A stretch of 64,000 nucleotides of DNA, from positions 96,001-160,000 of the forward strand of contig CBDESU010000001.1 in NCBI GenBank assembly GCA_965242695.1, written 5' to 3'. The translations under genes and the position numbers were made by a program. The DNA comes from Cenarchaeum sp. (GTDB taxonomy: Archaea > Thermoproteota > Nitrososphaeria > Nitrososphaerales > Nitrosopumilaceae). Below the pieces are notes generated by a model. The model was given only the letters and a program-made list of their open reading frames with translations, had not been told where the DNA came from and made no database searches. Of the stretch, positions 12,262-54,933 are shown in pieces; position 1 is the stretch's first letter; every line of letters begins with the position of its first letter.

Positions 12262-12272
12262 GGGGATGCGCA

Positions 12273-15200
12273 GTGTCCCCGCACCCCGCGAAGGAAGCGA
12301 GCGCCGCCGGCGAAGAGCACGCGTGCAGCAGCGGCCCTGCCCGGGCCGGGGCATCGCCGCCTAGCAGGCCCCCGTACGCCGGCCTCGCATCGATCGCGAT
12401 GGCGGTGCTGGCAGTGGCCGGAGTCGCCGTCGTTGCCCTTGCAGGCGCTGCCGCGCCAGGCGGCCCTGCCCAGGACGGCGCGCAGCTTGACGCGCCGTGG
12501 GCGGCGCACGCCCAGCTGCAGCCGGCCGAGCCGGTCCGCATCGGGGCATTCATGGCGCCGGGCGGCGGATTCGACGACACTCCCCGCATACTCGCGCTCC
12601 GGCACGCCGTCGGCGAGTTCAACATGCAGGGCGGCGGCGCCCTGCTAGAGCTGGCCGAGTACAACTTTACGCGCGGCAACGAGTCGGCCGCACTCGAGGC
12701 CGCGTACGACGGCGGCGCCGGGCCGACGTACTACGTGGGCCCCACGACGAGCAGCGGCCTGTCCTCCATAATGGGCCTTGCCAACGGGAGCGGAATAGTG
12801 CTCGTCAGCCCCGCCTCTGACGCGGCGCACCTTGCCGTGCCGGGCGACACTACGTTCCGCCTCACGATCAGCGTCGAAAAGCAGGCGCGCGCGCTTGCCC
12901 GCATAATGTCAAACGCATCGATCGATGCGGCGGTCACCGTAATACGCGACGATGCGTGGGGGCGCAGCTTCAACGCCTCGCTCAGCGACGAGCTCGGCCT
13001 GCGGGGAGTCGAGCTTGCCGCGTCGGTGCCGTTTGCCGACTCGGGCGCCGACTGGGACGCGGCGGCGGGGGCGGCCGGCGCCGCGGCCTCGGACTTGGCC
13101 GCCGCGCAGGGATCGCCCCGGGCTGGCATCGTGTTTGCCGGCTTTGGATCCGACTACCGCGAGATGGCCGCAGCGGCCGCATCCGCCGGGCCCGGTGACG
13201 CGGCCGCCGCGGCCCGCGGCGTGCCCTGGTTCGCGCCGTCGGCCGCAATCGAGGGATCGACGCTCGTCCCAATAGCCAACAGTACGGTCCGCGCCTTTTC
13301 AGCCCAGGTCAACCTGACTGCACTCGGGCACAACGCGCCGTCAAACGCAGTCACCGACAGGCTGGATGCGGCCCTTGCGCCGCCCGGCGGCGATCCCGAG
13401 CGCCTGACGTACTACGAGTACGCCGCGTACGACTCGCTGTTCGTGCTCGGCACCGCGATCGGGATGGTCCGCGACGCAGCGGGGGGCGATATGCCAGACC
13501 CCGCGGCCGTCGCAGCGGCCATGCCGGCGGCCGCCCTGGCCCACAAGGGGGCCCTGGGCAGGATCGCGCTCAACCCGAGCGGCGACCTTCTCATGCCCGA
13601 CGCGTTCGGCGTGTGGCAGGTCGACGCGTCGGGGGCGTGGAACCGCACGGGCACGGCCGCATCCGGCACTCCGGTCACCGAGATCGGAATGCTCGCCATC
13701 CTGGCCGGCGGGCACGAGGCCAACAGGGTCGCCGCCGCGCGCCTTGCCGTCAACGACCACAACTGGGCGCAGGATGCGGCCGCCGCATCCTCGGGCGAAG
13801 GAGGGGACGGGCGCCACTACCTGCACCTGTCCGTACACAACATTACCGTCAACGACACCCCGCCGCGCGTGCTCGACGTCCTGCGGAATGCCCACGCCGG
13901 CGGAGAGGGCCCGTCGGTGTACGTGGGCCCGTCGACGAGCGGCAACACGGGGAGGGTCCTAGACTACGCCAACGCCAACGGCATCGTGCTCGTCAGCCCG
14001 TCGGCGACGGCGCCGTCCCTGTCGATCGAGGGCGACAACCTGTTCCGACTGGCGCCCGACGACAGCCAGCAGGGCCTCGTGCTTGCGAACGTGATCGGCC
14101 GCGACCTGGCGGCCGCCGGAGGGTCCGGCGGCGGCGCCGGCACGGTCGTAGTGGCCGCCCGCGACGACGCCTGGGGGCGCGACCTGAACCGGACCGCGGC
14201 CGTACGGCTCGCCGCGCTCGGCCTGGACACCGTGCCGATCCAGTTCTCGGAGCGCGCCGAATGGCAGTCGGTCGCGCAGCGGCTAAACGCGGCGATCGAC
14301 TCTGCGAGCGGCGCGGGCGGCCCTGCCGCCGTCCTGTTCATCGGCCTGGCGCCGGACTTTAGGGGGATCGCCCCGCTGGCAGGCGATGCCCTGCCGTGGT
14401 ACGCCCCCGACTCGATCGCCGCCTCGCGCGACATCGCCGGCGATGCGGCCGCGCGCGGCTTTGCCGACAGGGTCAACCTGACGGCGACGCTGTTCAACGC
14501 GCCGGCAAACGCCGAGCAGGACCGCGTCCGGTCGACCCTTGCCGAGTCGGGGATATCGGGCCTGCGCACGTACGACTATTCCACCTACGACTCGGTCTCC
14601 GTTCTCGGCGAGGCCGTTGCCAATGCCTGGGACTCGGGCGCGGACGCGGCGGCCGTTGCGGCCGCAATACCGCCGGCGGCAGGGGCGTACGAGGGGGCCC
14701 TCGGCGACATCGCGCTCAACTCAAAGGGCGACCTGCGCTCGCCCAACGACTATGCGCTTTGGACGATGGAGGACGATGCGTGGAAGCGCATCGAGGTGTT
14801 TGCGGGCACGCCGGTCGTCGAGTTCGGCGCCCTAGTGTCCCTGGACGGCACGCCGGCCTCTGACGCGGCCCGGCTCGAGGCCATGATGCTCGCCGTCGAC
14901 GAGTACAACGGCGCAGCCGAGGCGGCGGGGGGCCCGATGTACATCGACCTGTCCGTGTTCCGCACGAGCATAGTGCCGGCGGCCGCCACGCCGTCGTCGC
15001 CTGCTGCGGCCGCGGCCCTGGAGGCTGCCTACGCCGCCGGCGCCGGCCCGTCGTACTACATCGGCCCGACGACGAGCGGCAACGCCGCCCGGGTCCTCGG
15101 CTTTGCAGACTCGAACAACATTACGCTGATCAGCCCGTCGTCGACGGCCGCGTCCCTTGCCAGGGAGGGCGATGCGCTGTTCCGCCTCGCCCCCAACGAC

Positions 15201-18200
15201 GCCCTGCAGGGCCGCATCCTGGCCGACATCATACACAACCGGCAGGGGGACATCATCGCCGGCCTCATCCGCGGATCGGGCGCGGACGCGGTCGTCTCGC
15301 TAGTGCGCAACGACACGTGGGGGCGCGACCTGGACGACTCGGCGTCGGCCCGCCTTGCCGCTCACGGCATACCCGTAACCAGCATACTGCACGCCCCGCA
15401 CGGCGCAGACTGGACGGATACGGCATCCGAGCTGGACTCGGCGATCGGCTCGCTGCTGGACGGGGGCTCTTCCCCCGCAGTCCTCCATGTCGGGTTCCAG
15501 GGCGACTTTGCCGCGATCGCCGGCGAGAATGCGGCCGGCGGCTACGGCCGCCTTGCATCCGTTCCCTGGTACGGCACGGACGGCATCGCGCGCGGCTCGT
15601 CCGTCGTGTCCGACCCGGACTCGCTTGCGCTCGCCGGCGCGACAAACCTGACGGCGACCGTGTTCGACGCCCCGGCATCTCCGCGGCTTGATGCCGTCAA
15701 GGCGGCCCTGGCCGCGCGCGGCATCGCCTCGCCCGGCCCGTATGCGTACTCTTCGTACGACGCCGTCCTGGTCATGGCCGGCGCCGTCGAGATGGCCATG
15801 GAGTCGAAGGGCGCCTCTACGTACGCGCCGGCCGACGTGCGCGGCATGGTAAGGGCCGCGGCGGCGGCGCACGACGGCGCCCTGGGCGACATCGAGCTCA
15901 ACGGCGCCGGCGACCTGCGCACGCCCAACGGGTACGCCACGTGGACGGTCGAGGACGGGGCCTGGAAGAGGGCCGGCGCGCACCCCTCCACGCCCGTGTT
16001 CGACGTCGGAGCCCTGCTCGTCCTTGGCGCCGGGCAGCCGTACACGGACGGGGCCGAGCTGGGAGTCATCGAGGCGGCCGTCGACGACTTCAACACCGCG
16101 CACGAGCTCGTCGGCGACTTTTACCTCGATCTCGAGGTGCAGCGGATCCGGGCCTCGCCGGGATCGGGATCGGCCGACCCTGGCGCGCTTGCCGGCCTAG
16201 AGGCCGCGCATGCGGGCGGCGCCGGCCCGTCGTACTATGTCGGCCCGTCCTCGAGCGCCAACGCCGCAAGGATGCTCGACTATGCAAACCGCAACGGGCT
16301 CGTCCTGGTCAGCCCGTCGTCGACCGACCCGTCGCTTGCCGTGCCCGCAGATGCCCTGTTCCGCATGATCCCAGACTACACGAGGCACGCCGATGCCCTG
16401 GCGCGGCTCCTCGGCGAGAGGGGCGCGGCCGAGGTCGTGCTCGCCGTCAGGGACGACGCCTGGGGGGCAGGCGTGAATGCATCCGTGCGCGCCGCGCTCG
16501 GCGACCTAGAGGCGCCGCCGGCCGTATCGCAGGTCTCGTTTGCCGAGGACAACGCCGACTGGGCCGCCGTTGCGCGCGAGCTCGGGGCCGCCGCGCAGTC
16601 GGCCGCCTCGCGCGCGGCCGCATCCTCTGCCTACCCAGCCGTCGTGTTCGCCGGATTCGACGGCGACTTTGCGGCCCTCGCGCAGCGGGCGGCGGCCGAT
16701 CCCGATGCGGCGCGCGCGCTTGCATCCGCGGAATGGCTCGGCGCCGGCGGCATCAGCGCCGACCCCGCCACGCTGGCGGGCCCCGGCGCGCTGGATCTCG
16801 CGACGGCCGTCAACCTGACTGCCGTCCGCTTCGCCCCGCCCGCGACGGCCGTTGCGGCCGGCCTGGATCCCGCCGCCACGTACGGGCCGTCCGCGTACGA
16901 CTCTGTGCGCGTCCTGGGCGCGGCGATCGGCGCCGCGTACGCCGACTCGCCAAACGGCACCGCCCCGTGGGGCCCCGCGGTGGGCGAGGAGATGCGCGAG
17001 GCCGCCGCCGAGTACACGGGCGCCCTCGGGGACCTCGAGCTCGACGAAAGCGGCGACCTTGACCACCCAGCCACGTTCGGGGTATACTCGGCGGGCGCAT
17101 CGGCGGCGGACGGCGGGGGCGCATGGACGCTCGACCGCATCCTCGCGCCGGGCGCGGCCGGCGAGTGCCCTGCCGGCACGCGCTGCATCGCGATCGGCGA
17201 GCTGTACACGGCCGAGCTCGGCGAGGCCGCCGAGGAGATTCACGAGGCGTACGCGATGGCCGCCGAGGACTTTAACCGCGAGCAGGCAGCATCGGGCGCC
17301 TCGCCGCGCGCGCATATAGTCCTGCAGCGCGCCGAGGTCTCGCTCTTTTCTCCCCTCGAGGGGCTGGAGGCGGCGTACGCCGGCGGCGCCGGGCCGGCCG
17401 CGTACGTGGGCCCAATCACGAGCTCGTCGGCGCTGGCCATGAAGCCGCTCATCGACAAGGAGGGCATCGTCCTCGTCAGCCCGACGTCGGCGTCGACGGG
17501 CGGCGGCCTGGCCGATGCGGACACGCTGTTCCGCCTGGCCCTCAGCGACACGTACGAGGCGGACCTGCTCGCGATCTCGGCCGGCTACGAGGGCGTCGAG
17601 ACCCTGATTCCTGCCGTCCGCGGCGATGCGTACGGGCTGAGCTACGAGTCCGAGCTGCGCGCCGAGGGGCGGATACTCGGCATTGGCGTGCCCGGCTCGG
17701 TCGTCATGGAGATCGACGACTCTTCCCCGGCGCACGGCCTGCTCGACGCAAGCGCCGACGCGGCCGACCTGAACCGGCTCGCATCCGCGGCCGTCGCGTC
17801 CGGCACGCCGGCATCCGCGGTCGGGATCGTGGTGGCCGGCACGACGACAGACCTCCACGACCTGGCCCACTACGCCGTCGAGTACCCGCTGCTGACCGAG
17901 GCAAAGTGGTTCGAGCCGGGCAACCTCTACCCGCCGCGCCCCATAACTGACGCCGAGACGCTCGAGCTTGCAAGGACGGCCGAGCTGTTCAGCACGCAGT
18001 GGGACGTCCCGCAGACGGGCCGGTTCGACGACGTCCACGACCGCCTTGCCGCAAGGGTCGGCATCGAGCCGCACATGCACTCTTACGCGGCGTACGACGC
18101 CGTCCTGCTCCTCGCCGATGCCGTAAACAGGTCGATGGCCGCCGACGGCTCGTACGCCGGCCCCGACGTGGCGGCCGAGGTGCCCGCCGCCGCGGCGCGG

Positions 18201-18716
18201 CTCCACGGCCTGCTCGGCGACGGCCTGGTGCTCGACGCCGGCGGCGACCGCGTCTCGCCGAGCAGCGTCGTCCTGTGGAAGACCGAGCAGGGGACGGGCA
18301 GGTGGATCGACGACGGCCACCTGCACCTTGATCCTACATGCGGTATCGCCCTCAGGTCGGCCGAGCTTGCGTTCGGCGACGTCCGGCCCGGCCTGCCTTC
18401 GAATGCGGCCGTCCAGGGCGTGCGGGCTGCGGGCACCGTGCCCGTATCCGGACTGGACGTGCATGCGACGCCGTGGACGTCTGCGGGTACGGGCGATACG
18501 GTCCTGCCGAGCGCGGCGACGCAGCTGCTCGTGGGGCGCGACTGGACGCCGCTGGCGGGGACGGTAGACCTTGGAGGCGGCGAGGGCGGCAGCGGCGCCG
18601 CAGTCGCCTCGATCGCCTCTTGGCGCGACCTCAGCTTCCGCGTGAGCCCCGATGCCGGCGCCCCGATGCCGGGGCAGATTGTCCAGACCGTCACGTACGC
18701 CACTACGTGCGACTAG
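12273..18716 (+). CDS. Paralogous giant secreted protein with five tandem type-1 solute-binding domains plus terminal Cys-bounded domain
   Basis: Five repeats of the same motifs. Signal ending WAAHA. In-frame GTG 12 nt after the upstream stop (start uncertain). Last three domains align with domains 4-6 of the upstream gene. Confidence 0.9.
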   Translation: MSPHPAKEASAAGEEHACSSGPARAGASPPSRPPYAGLASIAMAVLAVAGVAVVALAGAAAPGGPAQDGAQLDAPWAAHAQLQPAEPVRIGAFMAPGGGFDDTPRILALRHAVGEFNMQGGGALLELAEYNFTRGNESAALEAAYDGGAGPTYYVGPTTSSGLSSIMGLANGSGIVLVSPASDAAHLAVPGDTTFRLTISVEKQARALARIMSNASIDAAVTVIRDDAWGRSFNASLSDELGLRGVELAASVPFADSGADWDAAAGAAGAAASDLAAAQGSPRAGIVFAGFGSDYREMAAAAASAGPGDAAAAARGVPWFAPSAAIEGSTLVPIANSTVRAFSAQVNLTALGHNAPSNAVTDRLDAALAPPGGDPERLTYYEYAAYDSLFVLGTAIGMVRDAAGGDMPDPAAVAAAMPAAALAHKGALGRIALNPSGDLLMPDAFGVWQVDASGAWNRTGTAASGTPVTEIGMLAILAGGHEANRVAAARLAVNDHNWAQDAAAASSGEGGDGRHYLHLSVHNITVNDTPPRVLDVLRNAHAGGEGPSVYVGPSTSGNTGRVLDYANANGIVLVSPSATAPSLSIEGDNLFRLAPDDSQQGLVLANVIGRDLAAAGGSGGGAGTVVVAARDDAWGRDLNRTAAVRLAALGLDTVPIQFSERAEWQSVAQRLNAAIDSASGAGGPAAVLFIGLAPDFRGIAPLAGDALPWYAPDSIAASRDIAGDAAARGFADRVNLTATLFNAPANAEQDRVRSTLAESGISGLRTYDYSTYDSVSVLGEAVANAWDSGADAAAVAAAIPPAAGAYEGALGDIALNSKGDLRSPNDYALWTMEDDAWKRIEVFAGTPVVEFGALVSLDGTPASDAARLEAMMLAVDEYNGAAEAAGGPMYIDLSVFRTSIVPAAATPSSPAAAAALEAAYAAGAGPSYYIGPTTSGNAARVLGFADSNNITLISPSSTAASLAREGDALFRLAPNDALQGRILADIIHNRQGDIIAGLIRGSGADAVVSLVRNDTWGRDLDDSASARLAAHGIPVTSILHAPHGADWTDTASELDSAIGSLLDGGSSPAVLHVGFQGDFAAIAGENAAGGYGRLASVPWYGTDGIARGSSVVSDPDSLALAGATNLTATVFDAPASPRLDAVKAALAARGIASPGPYAYSSYDAVLVMAGAVEMAMESKGASTYAPADVRGMVRAAAAAHDGALGDIELNGAGDLRTPNGYATWTVEDGAWKRAGAHPSTPVFDVGALLVLGAGQPYTDGAELGVIEAAVDDFNTAHELVGDFYLDLEVQRIRASPGSGSADPGALAGLEAAHAGGAGPSYYVGPSSSANAARMLDYANRNGLVLVSPSSTDPSLAVPADALFRMIPDYTRHADALARLLGERGAAEVVLAVRDDAWGAGVNASVRAALGDLEAPPAVSQVSFAEDNADWAAVARELGAAAQSAASRAAASSAYPAVVFAGFDGDFAALAQRAAADPDAARALASAEWLGAGGISADPATLAGPGALDLATAVNLTAVRFAPPATAVAAGLDPAATYGPSAYDSVRVLGAAIGAAYADSPNGTAPWGPAVGEEMREAAAEYTGALGDLELDESGDLDHPATFGVYSAGASAADGGGAWTLDRILAPGAAGECPAGTRCIAIGELYTAELGEAAEEIHEAYAMAAEDFNREQAASGASPRAHIVLQRAEVSLFSPLEGLEAAYAGGAGPAAYVGPITSSSALAMKPLIDKEGIVLVSPTSASTGGGLADADTLFRLALSDTYEADLLAISAGYEGVETLIPAVRGDAYGLSYESELRAEGRILGIGVPGSVVMEIDDSSPAHGLLDASADAADLNRLASAAVASGTPASAVGIVVAGTTTDLHDLAHYAVEYPLLTEAKWFEPGNLYPPRPITDAETLELARTAELFSTQWDVPQTGRFDDVHDRLAARVGIEPHMHSYAAYDAVLLLADAVNRSMAADGSYAGPDVAAEVPAAAARLHGLLGDGLVLDAGGDRVSPSSVVLWKTEQGTGRWIDDGHLHLDPTCGIALRSAELAFGDVRPGLPSNAAVQGVRAAGTVPVSGLDVHATPWTSAGTGDTVLPSAATQLLVGRDWTPLAGTVDLGGGEGGSGAAVASIASWRDLSFRVSPDAGAPMPGQIVQTVTYATTCD

Positions 18717-18960
18717 GCGGCGCGGCGCGGCGCGCTGTAGACGCGGCCATGCCATGGGATGCTCCCTGCGGGGCGATCGCACTGGGGCCGCCCGCACGAG
18801 GCCTGATTTTGGGCGCCTGCACCGCCATGCGCCGCCGTACTGCGGCCCCTGCTGCCGCCATGCGTACCGTACGCCCCCCATCGCCGGCGCCCGTGCCGCC
18901 GACCCGGGAGCCGCCAGGCCGCCCCTGGCCATACCGTACGGCCCCACCGCCCCGCCCACG

Positions 18961-19000
18961 CCTAGGCGCCCCTAGGCGCCCCTAGGCGCCCCTAGGCGCC
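18961..19000 (+). repeat. (CCTAGGCGCC)x4 array upstream of the amoX promoter
   Basis: Four exact 10-bp copies; the same array occurs upstream of amoA. Confidence 0.95.
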
Positions 19001-19027
19001 CCCGCGTGCCAGCGCTGGCCCGAAAAT

Positions 19028-19042
19028 GAAAAGGCTTTAATA
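19028..19042 (+). promoter_or_regulatory. BRE/TATA promoter of amoX
   Basis: GAAAAGGC-TTTAATA; TATA begins 30 nt before ATG 19066, the same spacing as amoA, dam and Sec61beta (leaderless pattern). Confidence 0.75.
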
Positions 19043-19065
19043 CATGGAATCGAGGCTCGGCGCAA

Positions 19066-19428
19066 ATGACTCTTCCAAAGGGATTTGGATCGGGCGGCGC
19101 CGGCGGCACGAGCTCGGCCGATGTCGAAAAGATGATCGGGCGCCGTGTCGAGAACATGACCGGCCTGATTACCATCTCGTACATCGCTGCATGGCTTGCG
19201 ACCTTTGGCGGCACCGCGGCCGGGTACTTCTACTACCCATGGGCCTATCCGACCCCAAGCGGCCACTACGCCTTCATCGTCCTGACGATAGTCGAGGCCA
19301 TTGGCTACCTGTTCAGCGTAAAGGTGTCCGAGGAGGGATCCACAAAGAAGAGCAACGGCATCATAGCCGCGACGCTCGCTGGCACCGCGGTCGGCACCGT
19401 GCTCATATCGCTGTTCGTGGGCAACTAG
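19066..19428 (+). CDS. amoX: Ammonia monooxygenase accessory subunit AmoX
   Basis: 120-aa membrane protein with LPKGFG, MIGRRVENMTG and YYPWAYPTPSGHYAFIVLT, recognised as the conserved AOA ORF normally adjacent to amoA. Confidence 0.85.
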   Translation: MTLPKGFGSGGAGGTSSADVEKMIGRRVENMTGLITISYIAAWLATFGGTAAGYFYYPWAYPTPSGHYAFIVLTIVEAIGYLFSVKVSEEGSTKKSNGIIAATLAGTAVGTVLISLFVGN

Positions 19429-19440
19429 CCCGGGGATCCA

Positions 19441-19452
19441 TTTTTCGTTTTT
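19441..19452 (+). terminator. Oligo-T terminator after amoX
   Basis: TTTTTCGTTTTT 12 nt after the stop in a GC-rich context. Confidence 0.6.
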
Positions 19453-19888
19453 CGTCGTCGGGAGGGGCGCCTGCGCCCCGCCCTGCGCCGACGGCTGCGG
19501 CGGCGCGCGTGGGGTTCGCCTCGACTCGGGCCTGCGCACCCAGCGCCGCGTACCCGCCGGCATCGTGCAAGGTGGAGTGCATGCCCGCCCGGCGCCGCCC
19601 TGCCGTCCATGGCACTGCCTGCACATCCCTGCCGCCGATCGCCTCTGGCCCGGCACCTGTGGGATGGATGCAGCTGTAGGACATGTCAGATTCCTCCTAG
19701 AATCGAGCACCCGGCGCCCGGTGCGCGGGACTACCGCGAAAATTTCTTGGCGTGACCGTCGATCCGCCCGTCTTTTTGCCCTGCTGACTCAGAGGCCGTG
19801 TTGCACTCCGCGCGAGCAAAAGACGGCCCGCCTGCTGTGCGCACTCGGCTACCCTCTGGCAGGGGACCTGCGAAAAGGGGAGCCTACA

Positions 19889-20392
19889 TTACGCTTGCGC
19901 GCCGGCACGACTGTCCTGCGGCATGTAAAACCCGGCTGCCCTGAGACGGTCAATGATTTCTTGGTGATCTGCATGGCTTAACAGCCCCCTGTCCTCGAAC
20001 TCCTTGAGCAAGCCCGTCATGCCCGTAAATCTGATGCCCCACTTCTTGGCGAGCTTCCGAGCGCGAAGGTCGTCAAGCACACATTTTGCATCCACGCCAA
20101 TGTTTTTCAGACGCTGCCCGGTGAGGATGGCCTCGGACTCGCCAAGTCCCATGCGCCTGTGTCGTCGCATGAAGCGCTTCAGATCTTCTGGCACAACAAC
20201 ATCGACGATCGCCATTGTCCCGTTTGCGGCATGTTCGTCAATAAGCCCCTGATTCCCAACCTCGATCTCCGTCACCACAGAGGCGGGTACCAAAATTTCA
20301 CCATAGGTGGATTTTAGCTGCCGGACAAGTTCAGGACGGTCGAGTCGTTCGAGGAATGCTATTACTACGGTGCTATCAATAATCAGCGCCAT
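19889..20392 (-). CDS. PIN-domain toxin, DUF3368/COG2405-like (copy 1)
   Basis: IIDST...VPASVVTEI...GLGESEAI...LDDLRARKLA...G..FTG; acidic PIN residues intact. Confidence 0.85.
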   Translation of the reverse strand: MALIIDSTVVIAFLERLDRPELVRQLKSTYGEILVPASVVTEIEVGNQGLIDEHAANGTMAIVDVVVPEDLKRFMRRHRRMGLGESEAILTGQRLKNIGVDAKCVLDDLRARKLAKKWGIRFTGMTGLLKEFEDRGLLSHADHQEIIDRLRAAGFYMPQDSRAGAQA

Positions 20393-20436
20393 AAAAAACC
20401 ACTCGGAGATTGTGGCACGACCTCCGGCCGCTGTGC

Positions 20437-21036
20437 CTAGTAAAGGTTCACCATGCCGCGCCGTCCCATCATGTCGAGCACGTCGCGGTAGTTCACTTTC
20501 AGGATCTCGGCGGCGCGGCCCGACGATATTTTTTCTTCCTTGACCATACCAATAACTATCTCTTCGGCACGCGGTACTATGTCATTGTAGACCTTGGAGT
20601 TCACGGCCATGTCGGGGTACACCTGGTAGATGTACAGGAGCAGCTGCTCGTCGGTCATGTCGTTGAAGAACCTCTTGCACTCGCAGATTATGGCGGTCTC
20701 GGTCTCGTCAAGGTCCCTGCCGGCATCCCTCGCGGCGGCGCGTCCCTCGGAAGTCAGGGTGATCTTCCCCTGCACGTGCGACACCAGGCCGTCCCTCGAC
20801 AGGGCGTCCAGCCCGTCGGCCACCTGCTGGCTGTACGGGCCGTAGTCGTGCGGCCTAAAGGTGGACTCTACACCCTCGTCGTCTGCGTCCTTTGCCAGCA
20901 CGTACAGCATTTTCTGGAGCATCGTATGCCCGCGCACGCTCTCGTCTCCGGCGCCGGCAAGCAGCAGCATGTAGCGGCGGATCCTGCCGCCGCATGGTAG
21001 GGTCGAACGCAGTACGGTCATTGCCATCGGGAGCAT
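20437..21036 (-). CDS. Putative antitoxin: SocA/Panacea-like N-domain fused to UPF0175-like HTH (copy 1)
   Basis: LQKMLY...F.PHDYGPYS N-terminal motif; C-terminal KISSGRAAEILKV.Y.D.LD; directly upstream of the PIN gene. Start uncertain. Confidence 0.75.
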   Translation of the reverse strand: MLPMAMTVLRSTLPCGGRIRRYMLLLAGAGDESVRGHTMLQKMLYVLAKDADDEGVESTFRPHDYGPYSQQVADGLDALSRDGLVSHVQGKITLTSEGRAAARDAGRDLDETETAIICECKRFFNDMTDEQLLLYIYQVYPDMAVNSKVYNDIVPRAEEIVIGMVKEEKISSGRAAEILKVNYRDVLDMMGRRGMVNLY

Positions 21037-21894
21037 CTCCGGCGGAAGCGTGGCCGGACTCTGTACCCTTCAAGGCCACCAGTCCATTCCATGCATGTGC
21101 GCGCCGCGCCGAGCATAAGTAAGTTGTCACTGCGTGGGGCACCGCACGGGCTACTTCGTGCCGTCCGCCTGCATGCCGCCGTCCTGTCGTGCCGTCCGGC
21201 CCGCCGTGCTCCGGGCCGGGGTTGGTAGGGTGCGGCCAACGTTGCCCGTACGACTCTTCCAGTTACGACCTTCGGGCTTGTCGGCCGCCGCCTGAGACGG
21301 GGCCGGACGCCGGGATCGCCGCAAGGCCCGCCCTGCGCGGTATGTCGTTGCGCCGCGATGCGTGGGTTGCGGCGTATGCGGGCAGGAACGCGGCCCCCCG
21401 TGCCGCGCAACGGCCCTACCGGCAGTTTGTTCACGGACCGCCGCAACGCCTTGTACACCTCCGGCCCACGTTGCACGCAGACGCCGCAAAAGGCGTCGCG
21501 GCACCAGCTCCTGCTATCCGAAGTCGCACCACTACGCCTTTGAGATGCGAACCAAATATGGCCGCCGGGTTTGTTTGGCCGACCACTGGACTCCGGCCCT
21601 AAATGTCTGATGTGCAAGGCAACTGCAAAATTTTTTAGCGTGACTACGACGTACCTATAATCACGAGCACAAGTTCTTGACCCTCTTTTTGATCCACCAA
21701 CGCCTAATTGATGCACATAAAAAGGCCAGAAGCTTATGCTCGGGACTATGCTCCCCTCGCCCCAGCTGCCCCCTTCAAGGGGCGTCACCGTGCGGACGAA
21801 ACTGCCTGCCCCTCTGCCTGCTCCGACTACTTTCAGGCTTAAAGCCACTCGGGCAGCGATCGTCAACGCCGTTCTTATGCGCGCACACGCCGCT

Positions 21895-22371
21895 CTACGG
21901 GATGCGAAAGTCGGATGCCTTGAGCTTGCTGATGATTTCACCGTGTTCTGCGTTGCTCAAGTAACCTCTGAGTTTGAACTCCTCAAGCAGGCCCAACACG
22001 CCTGTAAATTTAACGGATAGGTTCTTGGCCTCGCTGCGCGCACGACCATCATCAAAGGCGCATTTTGCATCAACGCCCTTCTCATTTAGGCGTTGCCACG
22101 TAAGAATGACATCCGATTCGCCGGGGCCCATCTCTTTGTATTTCACCATAAATTCGTTAATATCTTCTACCGTGACAATGTTCGTGATTGTTATTGTCCC
22201 GCTTGAAATATATTTATCAACAAGCTCTGGATTTTTTACACTAAGTTCCTTCACCACAGAGGCGGGCACTATAACCTTGCCATACATAGAATCTAGATAA
22301 CGAATAAACTCAGGACGATGCAATCGTTCAAGCAACGCTATTATCACAGAAGTGTCGGCAATCAATACCAT
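21895..22371 (-). CDS. PIN-domain toxin, DUF3368-like (copy 2, AT-rich)
   Basis: IADTS...VPASVVKEL...GPGESDVI...FDDGRAR; colinear with copy 1 but diverged and markedly AT-richer. Confidence 0.85.
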   Translation of the reverse strand: MVLIADTSVIIALLERLHRPEFIRYLDSMYGKVIVPASVVKELSVKNPELVDKYISSGTITITNIVTVEDINEFMVKYKEMGPGESDVILTWQRLNEKGVDAKCAFDDGRARSEAKNLSVKFTGVLGLLEEFKLRGYLSNAEHGEIISKLKASDFRIP

Positions 22372-22416
22372 AAAAAATCACTCGCAGATTATGATGCGGC
22401 TCTCCACTAGTCGCGC

Positions 22417-23043
22417 CTAGTACAAGCTCATGCCGTGCCGCCCCATAATGTCGAGCACGTCGTGGTAGCTCACTTTAAGGATCTTGGCGGCACGGCCTGT
22501 TGATATTTTTTCTTCCTTGAGCATGCTCATGACTATATCTTCGGCGCGCGGCACTATGTCATTGTAGACCTTGGAGTTCACGGCCATATCGGGGTACACT
22601 TGGTAGATGTACAGGAGCAACTGCTCGTTGGTCATGCCGTTGAAGAACCGCTTGCACCCCCAGACTATGGCAGTCTCGGTCTCGTCAAGGCCCATGCCTG
22701 CATCCCTCGCGGCGACGCGTCCCGCGGAAGTCAGGGTGATCTTGCCCTGCACGTGCGACACCAGGCCATCCCTCGACAGGGCGTCTAGTCCGTCGGCCAC
22801 CTGCTGGCTGTACGGGCCGTAGTCGTGCGGCCTGAATGTCGACTCGACGCCCTCGTCGTCCACGTCCTTTGCCAGCACGTACAGCATTTTCTGGAGCATC
22901 GTATGCCCGCGCACGCTCTCGTCTCCCGCGCCGGCAAGCAGCAGCGTATAGCGGCGGATCCTGCCGTCGCACGGCAGGGTCGAACGCAGCCAGGTCATTG
23001 CCATCGGCCGCATCTCCCGTGGAGGCGTGGCCAGACCCTGCAC
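22417..23043 (-). CDS. Putative antitoxin (copy 2)
   Basis: Near-identical to 20437..21036. Confidence 0.75.
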   Translation of the reverse strand: MQGLATPPREMRPMAMTWLRSTLPCDGRIRRYTLLLAGAGDESVRGHTMLQKMLYVLAKDVDDEGVESTFRPHDYGPYSQQVADGLDALSRDGLVSHVQGKITLTSAGRVAARDAGMGLDETETAIVWGCKRFFNGMTNEQLLLYIYQVYPDMAVNSKVYNDIVPRAEDIVMSMLKEEKISTGRAAKILKVSYHDVLDIMGRHGMSLY

Positions 23044-23658
23044 CCTCCAAGGCCGCTTGTCCCTTCCATGCGAGTGCGCGCCGTGCCGTGCATAAGTAAG
23101 TTGTTACTGCGTGGGGTGCCGCACGGGCTGCCCCGTGCCGGCGCTTGCATGCCTCCGTCCTGCCGTGCCGTCCGGCCCGCCGTCCTCCGGGCCGGAGTCG
23201 GGAGGATGTGGCCAACGTTGCCCGTACGACACCTCCAGTTACGACCTTCGGGCTCGCCGGCCGCCGCCTGGGATGGGGCCGTACGCCGGGATCGCCGCAA
23301 GGCCCGCCCTGCGCGGTATGTCGTTGCGCCGCGATGCGTGGGCTGCGGCGTATGCGGGCAGGAATGAGACCCTCCCGCGCCGCGCACCGGCCTGCCGGCA
23401 GCTCGCTCGCAGGCGCGCCGTGCCGCCTCGTATGCTGCCCGCCGTGGCGCGCTCAAGATTTGTGCGGTGCGACCGCCCGCCGCCGGGGCGTCGATCTGGC
23501 GGTTGTGCTCCGCCGCCGGCTCGGTCGCCGATGCTCCACATGTTGCCAGGCCGCGGCGGCTTGGGCGCACGCGGGATGAACCTTATCTGACAATGCATGC
23601 GCGCCCCGCCTAGTGGCGCACGGAGACTCTATAACTTGGTGGGGCACACCGCGGCACG

Positions 23659-23849
23659 ATGGAAGACACGACAGTCAAGGACTTGGAGTTTTTGGACGCC
23701 CTGAGGGCAGAGCGGGCCGATCCATACCGCGGGGAGTGGGTTGTGATCTACGACGGCAAGATCGTAGCACACGGAAAGGATCCGGAGCGAGTGCCGGGGC
23801 GGCACACGAAGCCGCCGTGAGATTGCCCCTGATGGAGTACTTTTTTTAG
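23659..23849 (+). pseudogene. DUF5678-like small protein, probably frameshifted
   Basis: ATG 23659 gives MEDTTVKDLEFLDALRAERADPYRGEWVVIYDGKIVAHGKDPERV, stop at 23820; plausible tail AAHEAAVRLPLMEYFF in another frame. Confidence 0.55.
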
Positions 23850-23980
23850 CGATTCGTTAAAGGTGTCGTTTGAGTACATGCTGCTACCACGACCTGCCCT
23901 GCTGTGCCCGTAGACGGGCCTGGATGTCTAGACTGTTCGCGCAACGCTATTATTCCTGTAGCATCGGCAATCCGTTCCAT
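23846..23980 (-). pseudogene. Truncated PIN toxin remnant (copy 3)
   Basis: MERIADATGIIALREQSRHP..GQVVVAA aligns with MVLIADTSVIIALLERLHRP..GKVIVPA; lies downstream of antitoxin copy 3. Confidence 0.6.
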
Positions 23981-24071
23981 AGGGGCCGATGCGGGCGCCG
24001 CATTCGTGTCTGTGGATGCGAGATGGCGTGTAGGGCCCTCGGGCCAACTGCCGCCGCCCGTGCCGGCCTGC

Positions 24072-24731
24072 CTAGTGCAGGTACGCAATGCCGCGCCCCT
24101 TCATCATGTCGAGGATGTCGTGAAACGGCATCTTTAGGATCTCGGCGGCGTGGCCCGACGATATTTTCTCTTCTTCGACCATCCCCATGACTATGTCCGC
24201 CGCCCGGTGTAGCAGGTCTGCATGGGCCGCAGTAGTCGCAACCATGTCGGGGTACACCAGGCACGTATACAGGAGCAGCTGCTCGTCCGTCATGCCGTTG
24301 AAGAACCGCTTGCACTCGCAGAGCAACTCCCTCCTGTCGTAGTCAAGGCCCCTGTCCGCATCATCTGCCGCAGCATGCCCTGCGGCCGTCAGGGCGATCC
24401 TGCCCGGGGCTTCCACCACTAGGCCGTCCCTGGACATGCTGTCGAGCTCGTCGGCCACCTGCTGGCTGTACGGGCCGCGGCCGCGCGGTCCAAAGCCGGA
24501 TTCCACTTCCCTGTCGCCAGTGTCCTTCGCCAGCACGTACAGCATTTTCTGGATGGCTGCGCGGCCGTGCACGGCCTCCCCGCCAGCATCGGCGAGCAGC
24601 AGCATGTAGCGGCGGATCTTGCCTCTGCATGACGGGGCGGCCTGCGCCGGAACCGATGCCATCAGCGGCATCCTCCGTGCGGGCGGCGCCCCCATTTGCA
24701 CCAGGCCAAACCGCCTACTCCGTCCACGCAT
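24072..24731 (-). CDS. Putative antitoxin (copy 3, more diverged)
   Basis: IQKMLYVLAKD..GPYSQQVAD..CKRFFNGMTDEQLLLY..KISSGHAAEILK; start uncertain. Confidence 0.7.
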   Translation of the reverse strand: MRGRSRRFGLVQMGAPPARRMPLMASVPAQAAPSCRGKIRRYMLLLADAGGEAVHGRAAIQKMLYVLAKDTGDREVESGFGPRGRGPYSQQVADELDSMSRDGLVVEAPGRIALTAAGHAAADDADRGLDYDRRELLCECKRFFNGMTDEQLLLYTCLVYPDMVATTAAHADLLHRAADIVMGMVEEEKISSGHAAEILKMPFHDILDMMKGRGIAYLH

Positions 24732-25056
24732 GGCCGCACCGGGACGCGCATTAAATTGGATGTCACTGCGCGGGTGCGACCCGCCGGCACGGCATCGAGA
24801 CACCCTGCGCCGCAGGAATCCCGTCCGACGCTGCTAAAGGCCCGTGTGGGCCCGTCCGCACTGGCTCATCGATTCTGACCTCTGCGATCCCGCATGTGGT
24901 TGCAACGCCTGCAGTCTTGACACCTTGCCGCATCCGGGGCCAGAGCGCCCGATGCCTGCCATCCAATCCCGCCTACAGCCGTGGGCGCCTCAGCCTACTC
25001 CGAGTCGCCCCGTCGCGGTCCCCTCCAGGGCGCCGTCCCTGGGAGTCGGACCCGGC

Positions 25057-25152
25057 ACCCGCGCCCCCCTTGGGAGCCGCCCGCACTCCGTGCCCGCACT
25101 GCGAGGCCGACGCGCCGGCCATACCCGCGCCCCCCTTGGGAGCCGCCCGCAC
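25057..25152. repeat. Two identical 30-bp direct repeats (ACCCGCGCCCCCCTTGGGAGCCGCCCGCAC) 36 bp apart
   Basis: Copies at 25057-25086 and 25123-25152. Confidence 0.85.
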
Positions 25153-25373
25153 CCAGCGACCTGCCGCCCCTTTGCTCCCTGCACTCCTTGGTCGCAGTCC
25201 GTACCGCCCTCCCGTAGTCTCCCTAGGCCTGCGCCAGCCACACAGCCTCCAACTGCCGCCTGCCGCTCCCTCCGCCCCTGCCCGCCCAGGCCACCCCTGC
25301 GCCGACGCCACGTCTGCCCCCTCCAGCCCCCCTCCAGCCCCCCTCCATCTGCCCCTTGCCCCCCAGCCCTGCT

Positions 25374-25432
25374 CTAGGCGCCCCTAGGCGCCCCTAGGCG
25401 CCCCTAGGCGCCGCCGGCCCCATCCCTAGGCG
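25374..25432 (+). repeat. (CTAGGCGCCC)x4 array plus one partial copy upstream of the amoA promoter
   Basis: Copies start at 25374, 25384, 25394 and 25404; CCCTAGGCG at 25424. Confidence 0.9.
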
Positions 25433-25452
25433 TCAAACCGCCCCCGCGCGCC

Positions 25453-25466
25453 CAAATTCTTATATA
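25453..25466 (+). promoter_or_regulatory. TATA promoter of amoA
   Basis: TTATATA at 25460, 30 nt before the ATG. Confidence 0.8.
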
Positions 25467-25489
25467 CAAACGACCGGCGTGCGGCCCCA

Positions 25490-26140
25490 ATGGTCTGGCT
25501 AAGACGCTGCACGCACTACCTCTTCATTGTGGTAGTTGCCGTAAACTCGACCCTGCTTACGATCAATGCCGGAGACTACATCTTCTACACCGACTGGGCT
25601 TGGACGTCCTACACCGTGTTCTCCATCTCGCAGACCCTCATGCTCGTCGTCGGCGCGACGTACTACCTGACGTTCACCGGAGTACCGGGGACGGCGACGT
25701 ACTATGCGCTCATCATGACGGTGTACACGTGGGTTGCAAAGGGGGCCTGGTTCGCCCTCGGCTATCCGTACGACTTCATCGTCACGCCGGTATGGCTGCC
25801 GTCCGCAATGCTGTTGGACCTGGCGTACTGGGCGACAAAGCGCAACAAGCACTCGCTGATACTGTTCGGCGGAGTGCTGGTTGGCATGTCACTGCCGCTG
25901 TTCAACATGGTCAACCTCATAACGGTCGCCGACCCGCTGGAGACGGCGTTCAAGTACCCGAGGCCTACGCTTCCGCCGTACATGACGCCTATAGAGCCGC
26001 AGGTGGGCAAGTTCTACAACAGCCCGGTTGCGCTGGGCGCAGGAGCCGGTGCCGTACTGTCGGTTACCATGGCTGCGCTCGGCGTAAAGCTGAATACGTG
26101 GACCTATAGGTGGATGGCCGCCTGGTCAAAGTGGGACTAG
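25490..26140 (+). CDS. amoA: Archaeal ammonia monooxygenase subunit A
   Basis: 216 aa, MVWLRRCTHYLF...AGDYIFYTDWAWTS...YRWMAAWSKWD; unmistakable archaeal AmoA. Confidence 0.99.
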   Translation: MVWLRRCTHYLFIVVVAVNSTLLTINAGDYIFYTDWAWTSYTVFSISQTLMLVVGATYYLTFTGVPGTATYYALIMTVYTWVAKGAWFALGYPYDFIVTPVWLPSAMLLDLAYWATKRNKHSLILFGGVLVGMSLPLFNMVNLITVADPLETAFKYPRPTLPPYMTPIEPQVGKFYNSPVALGAGAGAVLSVTMAALGVKLNTWTYRWMAAWSKWD

Positions 26141-26384
26141 CCTTACCCCTCTTTTCATTTACTCGCGCCGCGCCAGCGGCGCCGCGCCCGCCCGCGCCGG
26201 ACGCCGGGCCGGGGCGGCGCGGCAGCGGACGGCCGCCCCTCAGCGGCGCGCGCCGGGCGGCCTGGCCTGCGCGGCACATCCTGCAGAATATCGGCCGCCC
26301 GCGGCTCGGCATGCGCCGATCGAAGGCGAGATGCTGCGCAGGGCCCGCCGCGCCTTGATATATCGGGCCGCCCGCCCGCGCCCG

Positions 26385-27248
26385 ATGCAGCGCGCTGCCG
26401 CAGCCGCCCAGGCCCCTGCCAAGCCGCGCCCGTTTGTAAAGTGGGCCGGCGGCAAGCGCCTCCTGCTGCCGGACATTGCCGCCGCCTTTCCGGACGGGTT
26501 CGGCCGCTACTACGAGCCGTTCCTCGGCGGAGGCGCCGTCATGTTCCACGTGCTCACCGGGCGCCGCGGCGTGGAGTGCTCGGCATCCGACTCGAACCCA
26601 GACCTTGTCGCCACGTACGAGGCGGTCCGCGACGGGGTAGAGCGGCTCATACTGCTCCTCGAGGCGCACGCAGCCGGGTACGCCGCCGGCCCAAAGGACT
26701 ACTACTACTCGGTCAGGGCCGGCGAGCCGACGGACCGGGACGAGCGCGCCGCCCGCATGATATTCCTCAACCGCACGTGCTTCAACGGCCTGTACCGCGT
26801 CAACAGCAGCGGCAAGTTCAACGTGCCGTTCGGGGGCCGCCTCCGCCCGAACATCGTGAACGCGGCCGTCCTGCGCGCCGCGAGCGCCCTGCTGTCCTCG
26901 GCGCGCCCCTCGATCGCGTGCGCCGACTTTGAGGATGCGGTCGCGGGGGCCTCGGAGGGCGACCTGGTCTACATGGATCCCCCCTACCAGCCGGTCAGCG
27001 CCACCAGCTTTACGCACTACACGCGGGACGACTTTGGGGGCGGCGACCTGGAGCGGCTTGCAGCCGCATGCCGCGAGCTCGACGGCAGGGGCTGCCGCGT
27101 CCTGCTGTCCAACTCGGACTCGCCCGAGGTGCGGCGGCTGTTCGCCGGCGGGCCCTGGCGCTGCAGGCGCCTCGAGGTGAACCGAATGATCAACTCGGAC
27201 GGGGCCAATCGGCGCGGCCACCACGAGCTCCTCATCAGGAATTACTAG
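26385..27248 (+). CDS. dam: Dam-like (D12 class) N6-adenine DNA methyltransferase
   Basis: PFVKWAGGK, YYEPFLGGGA, LNRTCFNGLYRVN, DPPY, LLSNS, ELLIRNY; TATA-like TTGATATA 30 nt upstream. Confidence 0.93.
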   Translation: MQRAAAAAQAPAKPRPFVKWAGGKRLLLPDIAAAFPDGFGRYYEPFLGGGAVMFHVLTGRRGVECSASDSNPDLVATYEAVRDGVERLILLLEAHAAGYAAGPKDYYYSVRAGEPTDRDERAARMIFLNRTCFNGLYRVNSSGKFNVPFGGRLRPNIVNAAVLRAASALLSSARPSIACADFEDAVAGASEGDLVYMDPPYQPVSATSFTHYTRDDFGGGDLERLAAACRELDGRGCRVLLSNSDSPEVRRLFAGGPWRCRRLEVNRMINSDGANRRGHHELLIRNY

Positions 27249-27320
27249 CTTCGAGCGGGATCTGAACCCGCGACCTTTACCTTACCAAGGTAACGCTCTA
27301 CCGGGCTGAGCTATCGAAGC
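27247..27320 (-). tRNA. tRNA-Thr(GGT)
   Basis: Reverse complement folds as a cloverleaf: GCTTCGA acceptor, TTACC-TTGGTAA-GGTAA anticodon arm, GCGGG-TTCAGAT-CCCGC T arm. 3' end overlaps the dam stop codon. Confidence 0.95.
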
Positions 27321-27409
27321 GCGCGCGTGCGCCGTGCAAAATCCATATAACTCTTGGCCGCTTGATTTCGCGGCGGGGCCCCGCGGCGCGGCCGTTGCCG
27401 GAGGGGCGC

Positions 27410-54382: not shown

Positions 54383-54933
54383 AGCCGTCATAACTACTCG
54401 CCAGATCGACCCCGATCGCCGTTGCCGGCCGCGGGCGGGCACCGAGGGGGGGGGGGCGGCGGACGCGGCAGCCTGCCTAGGCGCCTCTGTCCGCCTAGGG
54501 GCATTGGCGCGGCATCCGCGTGCGGCTCGGGGTGCAGCCGCGCGTCGCGCCTTGGCACTCTTGCCGTAGCCGCCCTGGCGGTAGCCTTGGCCGCCTCTAT
54601 ACCGCCGGCGATCTTGGACGGCATCGCACCTTCTGCCCCGCATCAGGACCGCGCCGCCCCGGGCATCTTCCCGGGGCCACTGCACCTCGCGCATCTGCTG
54701 CTGCCGGCGGCGCATGCGGACCCCCACTACGGGCCGTGCGTCTATTTTCCCAAGAGCACCGACATAGGCGTCGGGTATACGGTCGTCCTGTCGTTCGTGA
54801 CTCGCGATGGCTTGTACGGAATAGGCGAGACCATCGTCATCAACGCACATAGGACGACCGGACACGGCGATGGCGAGCCTCTTAGGCACTCGCGGATTGC
54901 GCTAGAGACGGGGAACGTCGACCGGTTTGCTGT

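Follow-up and report, generated by a model that had tools for sequence, protein, structure and literature searches.

The window analysed here, a stretch of 64,000 nucleotides from Cenarchaeum sp., contains amoX and amoA, two genes for subunits of the ammonia monooxygenase (AMO). Upstream of each gene stands a perfect tandem array of about four copies of the GC-rich decamer CCTAGGCGCC; these are named array 1 (amoX) and array 2 (amoA) in the following. Both arrays are real, intergenic and unique in the genome. They are missing in congeners and at the AMO genes amoB and amoC, and their unit varies between populations. We favour the reading that the arrays are a lineage-specific, hairpin-prone 10-base minisatellite that was copied between two neighbouring spacers, and we assign a probability of roughly 0.45 to it. 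On this reading, the array is not an operator of an AMO regulon. Among known elements, it fits best with short tandem repeats in spacers upstream of promoters. The genome analysed (G000) comprises 3.89 Mb in two contigs (C1 and C2) with 67–68% G+C. The window corresponds to C1:96001–160000, and positions given without a contig are those of the window.

Exact units of CCTAGGCGCC start at 18961, 18971, 18981 and 18991 in array 1 and at 25383, 25393 and 25403 in array 2. One-mismatch units were found at 25373 and 25425 (Table 1), and the lone further exact unit in the window starts at 54476. None of the 81 rows that Tandem Repeats Finder returned for the window holds another array of this unit. 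The end of array 1 (19000/19002) is about 35 bases away from the TATA box of amoX, and the end of array 2 (25412) is 47 bases away from that of amoA. Three observations of an earlier sequence-only reading are thus confirmed, namely the four tandem copies before each gene, the distances of ~35 and ~47 bp to the TATA boxes, and the lack of any other such array in the window. Both arrays lie on the plus strand, within 64–117 bases upstream of the start codons. Measured from the ATG, the repeats span −64 to −105 at amoX and −56 to −117 at amoA (including a decayed fifth unit), and both spans are located upstream of the transcription factor B recognition element (BRE) and the TATA box. Relative to TATA box and ATG, the arrays are offset by 12 bases from each other, that is, they are 2 bases out of helical phase. 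The longest string common to the upstream regions of amoX and amoA comprises 39 bases, compared to a maximum of 17 in 300 shuffles.

The decamer consists of two overlapping 6-base palindromes, CCTAGG and GGCGCC, and its period corresponds to one helical turn. Array 1 is bordered by a short inverted repeat (CACGC/GCGTG). Single-strand DNA folding of array 1 yielded −20.5 kcal/mol for the plus strand and −23.3 kcal/mol for the minus strand (z about −4.3); none of 200 shuffles reached an equal value. The folding of array 2 is weaker (z −2.1). The minus strand of array 1 follows the pattern G4-5 N6 G4 N6 G4 N6 G4.

The rarity of the array was assessed by pattern scans of the whole genome. A two-unit pattern with at most two mismatches gave seven matches, six inside the arrays and one in a degenerate dimer (C1:566206); the reversed control gave none. 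A three-unit scan allowing seven mismatches gave 16 matches versus two for the control; the two arrays account for twelve of the 16, and the remaining four are located at C1:566196, C1:642746, C2:16446 and C2:1042084. Counted on both strands, the genome has 52 exact single decamers (7 in the arrays, 45 elsewhere). A rough estimate from composition is ~35, so single units are not enriched. A common intergenic minisatellite, which the sequence-only reading had named as the case that would speak against it, was not found; the array is confined to two amo promoters in this genome.

The genome contains 61 perfect arrays of period 7–15 with at least 3.5 copies, mostly with periods divisible by three. 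Only five of them have a period of 10, and all five are intergenic. A sister array, GCTAGGCGCA x4.2 at C1:642746–642787, contains the 8-base core CTAGGCGC. It occupies a spacer within a tandem family of ~1.5-kb cassettes bearing PIN-like genes (below the Pfam cut-off). At the same place, three paralogous cassettes carry one unexpanded copy (GCTGGGCGTG and variants). This is direct evidence that the sister array arose by a 30-base in situ expansion of a 10-base unit, relative to the three paralogous cassettes. Its single-strand folding is no better than that of shuffles (z 0.0). The region around it (C1:638000–644300, L048) comprises at least four tandem cassettes with spacings of 1514, 1515 and 1564 bases. 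In each cassette, the PIN-like gene converges on a gene of 195–196 amino acids without a family match, and the spacer with the sister array also contains a 36-base duplication.

For a comparison of populations, contigs (not reads) of four runs from four sponge-metagenome studies (X1, X4, X5 and X7) were evaluated on 18500–26200; sponge metagenomes with the locus make up 13 rows from 7 studies, and no RNA data set with it is listed among 17 runs. Each of the four runs covers this stretch completely. Contigs of X4, X5 and X7 run through array 1 with its length unchanged, and array 2 is crossed by contigs of X4 (822 bases, 0 gaps) and X5 (a single gap of unknown position). The contigs of X1 and X7 break at 25383 and 25403, as expected for a repeat common to two loci. 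As the arrays are spanned by contigs of independent runs, they are not an assembly artefact. The differences listed include A>G at two positions, 18974 (X4, X5, X7 and part of X1) and 18984 (X4 and X7), by which one or two of the four units of array 1 become CCTGGGCGCC; the CTAG core is thus not fixed. X7 differs from this genome in 75 letters in about 2 kb, and both arrays predate the split of populations that differ to this extent. An apparent deletion in X7 (a 1993-base skip combined with a 1856-base step back) is best read as an alignment to a paralogous cassette (D4, 91% identity) and not as cassette loss. A joint in X1 (20822>24140) has only 21 letters on one side and was disregarded.

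AmoA was found in 29 of the 41 genomes searched, including all 24 other family members. The core promoter of amoA, with the consensus AAAATTTTATATAC, is almost invariant across these relatives, and the AmoA sequences of the congeners G002, G003 and G004 are 100% identical to that of this genome. No array was found upstream of amoA in the 27 loci for which the upstream region was available; three loci gave no start. The core promoters of both amoX and amoA are retained in G004, whereas the sites of the arrays have a different sequence. Alignment of array 1 with G004 shows about 1.5 degenerate units, and array 2 has no alignable homologue. The upstream regions of amoX and amoA share 11 bases in G004 and 13 bases in G002, which is within the shuffle null (95th percentile 13). 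The same holds for 20 of 21 further family loci; the marginal one, L040, shares 11 bases compared to a null maximum of 10. With G002 and G004, close relatives therefore have neither the array nor a common upstream string above the null, a result that the sequence-only reading had itself named as contradicting it. A search with the two-unit pattern in one genome per species (185,579 species, own and near-identical genome records possibly left out) yielded six single dimers, all bacterial and none archaeal. The three-unit pattern gave no match in public metagenome contigs, and no description of the decamer element was found in the accessible parts of the literature.

In 12 of the 27 family loci (L011–L040), the tetramer GATC, mostly as CGATC, precedes the TATA box of amoA by 20–24 bases; in 14 of the 27 it lies within 40 bases. 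It is a candidate for a conserved cis element and possibly one of the group-specific motifs described in the accessible part of PMC3379541.

The DNA between amoX and amoA has been rebuilt. The distance from start to start is 337–840 bases in 21 loci of relatives and 770 bases in G002. In G004 about 8.7 kb and in this genome about 5.9 kb lie between the two genes, and the two inserts are unrelated. Homology to G004 covers 18966–19493 and resumes at 25439, which delimits a lineage-specific segment of about 19494–25438; the cassettes within it have no homology to G002 either. Array 2 and the decayed unit (25373–25434) are located at the extreme right edge of the lineage-specific DNA, where they abut the conserved core promoter. 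For the DNA around array 1, a loose alignment with G004 is still possible. The segment contains three tandem paralogous two-gene cassettes (Table 1). The Pfam matches of their products are all below the cut-off, with 19.0–21.4 bits versus 27.9 for UPF0175 and 20.3 versus 27.3 for DUF3368; NCBIfam gave DarG-like matches only, which are far sub-threshold. The cassettes may consist of a putative UPF0175 antitoxin and a putative DUF3368/PIN-like toxin, and the label toxin-antitoxin is reasonable but unproven. The region is recombination-active, as the 770 bases of G002 compare to kilobases of unrelated DNA in G004 and here, and as the cassettes are present in tandem triplicate.

Two further repeats were observed in the same segment. 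Both are located in the C-rich spacer upstream of array 2. One is CCCCCTCCAGC x2.8 at 25317–25347. At 25057–25161, a 39-base repeat recurs with a spacing of 66 bases, and run X7 has 21 other letters for bases 25096–25183.

The absence of the array in congeners and at amoB and amoC, the variable core, the out-of-phase position of the two arrays, the array-making observed elsewhere in the genome, and the rearranged neighbourhood together favour a neutral minisatellite that was copied. We propose the following course of events. The GC-rich decamer of overlapping palindromes would fold into stable single-strand hairpins and would expand through slippage during replication. Thereafter, the array would have reached the second spacer, either by local ectopic recombination or by template switching. 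This would have happened in a repeatedly rearranged stretch, in which foreign DNA was inserted between amoX and amoA and 2-kb cassettes were amplified in tandem. If transcription is affected at all, this would be incidental and would concern only the amoX and amoA genes of this species. The parts that we infer are slippage as the source of both arrays, the copying and its direction, and neutrality. Like known slippage minisatellites, the arrays consist of perfect head-to-tail copies of a hairpin-prone unit at an intergenic place, and a sister array has expanded in situ. Unlike such repeats, the arrays occur as an identical pair, each member before a gene of the same complex, and their copy number is constant in spanning contigs.

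Several findings weigh against a copied minisatellite. The arrays are identical, occur nowhere else in the 3.89 Mb, and precede genes for two subunits of a single enzyme; their orientation and copy number agree and their distances are similar, which is much to ascribe to coincidence if the copy is neutral. No homology extends beyond the array itself (repeat family D3) and would mark a copied segment. The copy number is unchanged among the spanning contigs, whereas variation might be expected in a neutral repeat prone to slippage. The core CTAGGCGC is common to three of the five perfect 10-base arrays, for which a rough chance estimate is a few percent. Moreover, the amoA promoter of this genome (L013) is without the GATC found in relatives; the array may thus substitute for an upstream element that was lost.

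A regulatory function had been the first proposal of the sequence-only reading, which regarded the arrays as operator or activator sites co-regulating dispersed AMO genes. The genes amoB (minus strand, C1:90437 to about 91006) and amoC (plus strand, C1:91268–91831) are divergent and located ~23 kb upstream of amoX. No CCTAGGCGCC unit was found in the 260-base spacer between them, and the genome-wide pattern scans found no array before any other gene. As the amo genes of close relatives do not possess the array either, this proposal is not supported in its general form. The amoB–amoC spacer (C1:90940–91330) has repeats of its own, namely GATGCTTATCAT x2 and three TTGACG-type motifs. A motif common to all four amo promoters was sought and rejected: CGTCAAACCG, which is found at amoA and in the amoB–amoC spacer, occurs 13 times in the genome, and a 10-base match is within the null. 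Among the 45 single units outside the arrays, five are within ~190 bases of a TATA-like hexamer that is followed by an ATG after 22–40 nucleotides; none of these belongs to an amo gene, and there is no enrichment. One of the five precedes a 505-amino-acid protein, which we take to be 4-hydroxybutyryl-CoA dehydratase-like, and another a small protein that presumably resembles ribosomal protein L39e. The others stand before two paralogous PIN-like genes and before a protein with a radical-SAM-like CxxxCxxC motif.

Archaeal activators act upstream of BRE and TATA box. Their sites are repeated short motifs, which are bound, for example, by Ptr2 in Methanocaldococcus jannaschii, EarA in Methanococcus maripaludis and GvpE in Halobacterium. 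The decamer arrays resemble these sites in their place upstream of BRE and TATA box, in having several copies of a short motif, and in preceding functionally linked genes. They differ in that no binding protein is known and in that the motif is kept neither in sister species nor at the other genes of the complex. Being absent from the rest of the regulon and not conserved in relatives, the array lacks two defining properties of an upstream activator site.

In a narrower version, which is possible but somewhat unlikely, only amoX and amoA would be jointly activated or repressed, by several regulator dimers bound to the palindromes along one side of the helix. This version would explain why the array is unique in the genome to two AMO subunit promoters, why both copies have four units in the same orientation between −64 and −117, upstream of BRE and TATA box, and why a unit of two overlapping 6-base palindromes is repeated once per helical turn. 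The unchanged length in contigs of other studies and the GATC that is found across the family but missing here are consistent with it. GCGCCTGGG-like strings at roughly matching positions of both G004 promoters point in the same direction, although this likeness is weak and post hoc, and units with at most two mismatches occur 1.6 times per kb and strand genome-wide. A degenerate pattern that was also written post hoc matches amoA of G004 and of G002 but neither amoX, and it is not consistently enriched in these two genomes. Furthermore, such sites would have to be dispensable at amoB, amoC and every other promoter, in the congeners and in 20 of 21 family loci (the 21st being marginal). They would have to tolerate the alteration of the CTAG core in one or two of the four units of array 1 in some populations, and a difference of 2 bases in phase relative to the TATA box; a candidate regulator is lacking. 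The accessible part of a study on N. viennensis reports that the six amo genes appear to be co-regulated, and it found no promoter motif common to them (Hodgskiss et al. 2023, PMC10030591). Such co-regulation is compatible with shared binding sites, and the decamer locus leaves the picture of amo genes without a common promoter motif unchanged.

Alternatively, the array could be a newly evolved element, either a lineage-specific regulator site or a histone-positioning site, that replaced the GATC element at amoA and was duplicated at amoX. We regard this as unlikely. If it were true, a new element would couple the expression of two AMO subunits in a gene cluster that foreign DNA had split, and promoter rewiring would have been caught in the act in an uncultured symbiont. 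According to the accessible part of an earlier study, amo genes have separate TATA/BRE promoters 23–24 nucleotides before the ATG of amoA and amoX, and their promoters contain group-specific motifs (Bartossek et al. 2012, PMC3379541). The design of the core promoters is alike here. In contrast, those motifs are conserved across lineages, whereas the decamer array is confined to one species and the GATC is missing at its amoA.

A structural element is improbable, yet some properties of the arrays would suit it. A TA step every 10 bases could position a histone particle, or the DNA could form a bend, a cruciform or a G-quadruplex, and the array would serve as a boundary that shields the promoters from new upstream neighbours. 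The arrays contain one TA step per 10-base unit in a background of 80% GC, and the genome encodes a histone-fold protein (PF00808, 41.6 bits, over the cut-off); the phasing of a nucleosome-type sequence is thus present. The strong hairpin potential, the G-run pattern on the minus strand of array 1, and the new upstream neighbours that both promoters acquired in this lineage are likewise compatible with a boundary. A histone tetramer covers roughly 60 bases, which is more than the 40 bases of the array, and the congeners do without the element. The accessible part of a study on archaeal nucleosomes describes positioning by helically phased AA/TT/AT/TA and CC/GG/CG/GC dinucleotides (PMC3691661). 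The arrays are alike in having one TA step per turn within GC-rich DNA in a genome with a histone gene; they differ in their short length. The same source reports that nucleosome assembly is reduced just upstream of open reading frames (ORFs), a point against such an element.

The second proposal of the sequence-only reading regarded the arrays as direct repeats that bracket amoX and the toxin-antitoxin cluster, whose toxins would penalise a deletion. Direct repeats of 39–42 bases do bracket 6.4 kb with three putative toxin-antitoxin cassettes; nevertheless, recombination substrates or attachment-site-like repeats held by addiction are very improbable. The lineage-specific segment begins only after amoX (about 19494), with just its right end near an array. 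G004 shows synteny for amoX together with the gene upstream of it, and a scan of 12 ORFs gave no match to an integrase or transposase family. In the contigs of the four runs, no junction of 19002 with 25374 occurs, although rare variants would escape contigs. Finally, amoX would itself be lost in such a deletion, and this loss would be penalised without any need of toxins. The synteny in G004 also rules out an origin as one array that was split by insertion, or as a target duplication. What stands of the sequence-only reading is a rare array confined to amo promoters and placed upstream of BRE and TATA box, whereas regulon-wide co-regulation and the deletion penalty do not.

The features of the locus are compiled in Table 1. 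Both TATA boxes end 23 nucleotides before the ATG of their gene, which corresponds to a leaderless design. A comparison of amoX with Pfam and NCBIfam gave no match. On 18000–26500, Rfam gave no match up to E = 1, and in a scan for bacterial-type promoters and terminators nothing rose above shuffles.

Table 1. Coordinates of the decamer arrays and of the genes and core promoters next to them (window positions).
Feature	Position	Strand	Remarks
Array 1, CCTAGGCGCC x4.2, perfect	18961..19002	+	Tandem Repeats Finder: period 10, 4.2 copies, 100% matches; units start at −105, −95, −85, −75 from the amoX ATG
amoX core promoter	19022..19043	+	A-rich BRE-like stretch and TATA box TTTAATAC (19036–19043); conserved in G004
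amoX, 120 amino acids	19066..19428	+	Homologues with 77–97% identity in 5 of 5 genomes searched; adjoins amoA in relatives
Three tandem paralogous two-gene cassettes, ~2 kb	19889..24803	−	Units start near 20268, 22247, 23935; families D1–D7, 72–93% identity
Array 2, CCTAGGCGCC x3.9, perfect	25374..25412	+	Tandem Repeats Finder: period 10, 3.9 copies, 100% matches; units start at −117, −107, −97, −87 from the amoA ATG; first unit (from 25373) is TCTAGGCGCC
Decayed fifth unit CCTAGGCGTC	25425..25434	+	12 bases past array 2; −65 from the amoA ATG
amoA core promoter CAAATTCTTATATAC	25453..25467	+	TATA box TTATATAC (25460–25467); family-wide consensus AAAATTTTATATAC
amoA, 216 amino acids	25490..26140	+	PF12942, E 1.4e-118; single copy in genome

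Directly upstream of amoX lies an ORF of 2156 amino acids (12246–18716, plus strand) with repeated ANF_receptor/periplasmic-binding-protein domains, which is syntenic in G004. Directly downstream of amoA, a gene for a D12-class N6-adenine DNA methyltransferase was found (26331–27248, plus strand; PF02086, E 2.7e-50). The stretch 25488–27357 aligns with G002, so the pairing of amoA with the methyltransferase gene is common to at least one congener.

Three observations were made elsewhere in the genome. The largest 10-base array is a perfect one of 26 copies of GGGCCTTGCC (C2:934662–934921, L058), which is intergenic. A second intergenic region (C1:566150–566360, L056) has roughly five motifs of the type GCNCCTRGG, among them GGCGCCTGGGCGCCTGGG and a degenerate dimer of CCTAGGCGCC; these motifs stand upstream of a 65-amino-acid ORF that contains cysteine and histidine. 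Finally, a unit near the end of C1 lies in a stretch of 810 bases (C1:2202350–2203160) that recurs with 100% identity near the start of C2 (C2:4520–5330). Contigs C1 and C2 probably overlap or join at this identity.

To our knowledge, it is unknown how the key enzyme of ammonia-oxidising archaea is controlled. A clean repeated element common to two amo promoters would be a rare handle on the control of AMO. As the element is confined to one sponge-symbiont species and to two genes, it says little on AMO regulation in general. The arrays are a compact pair of sequences that is suited to a binding or in vitro transcription test. Beyond that, the locus illustrates that amo spacers are freely rebuilt while each gene keeps its own core promoter.

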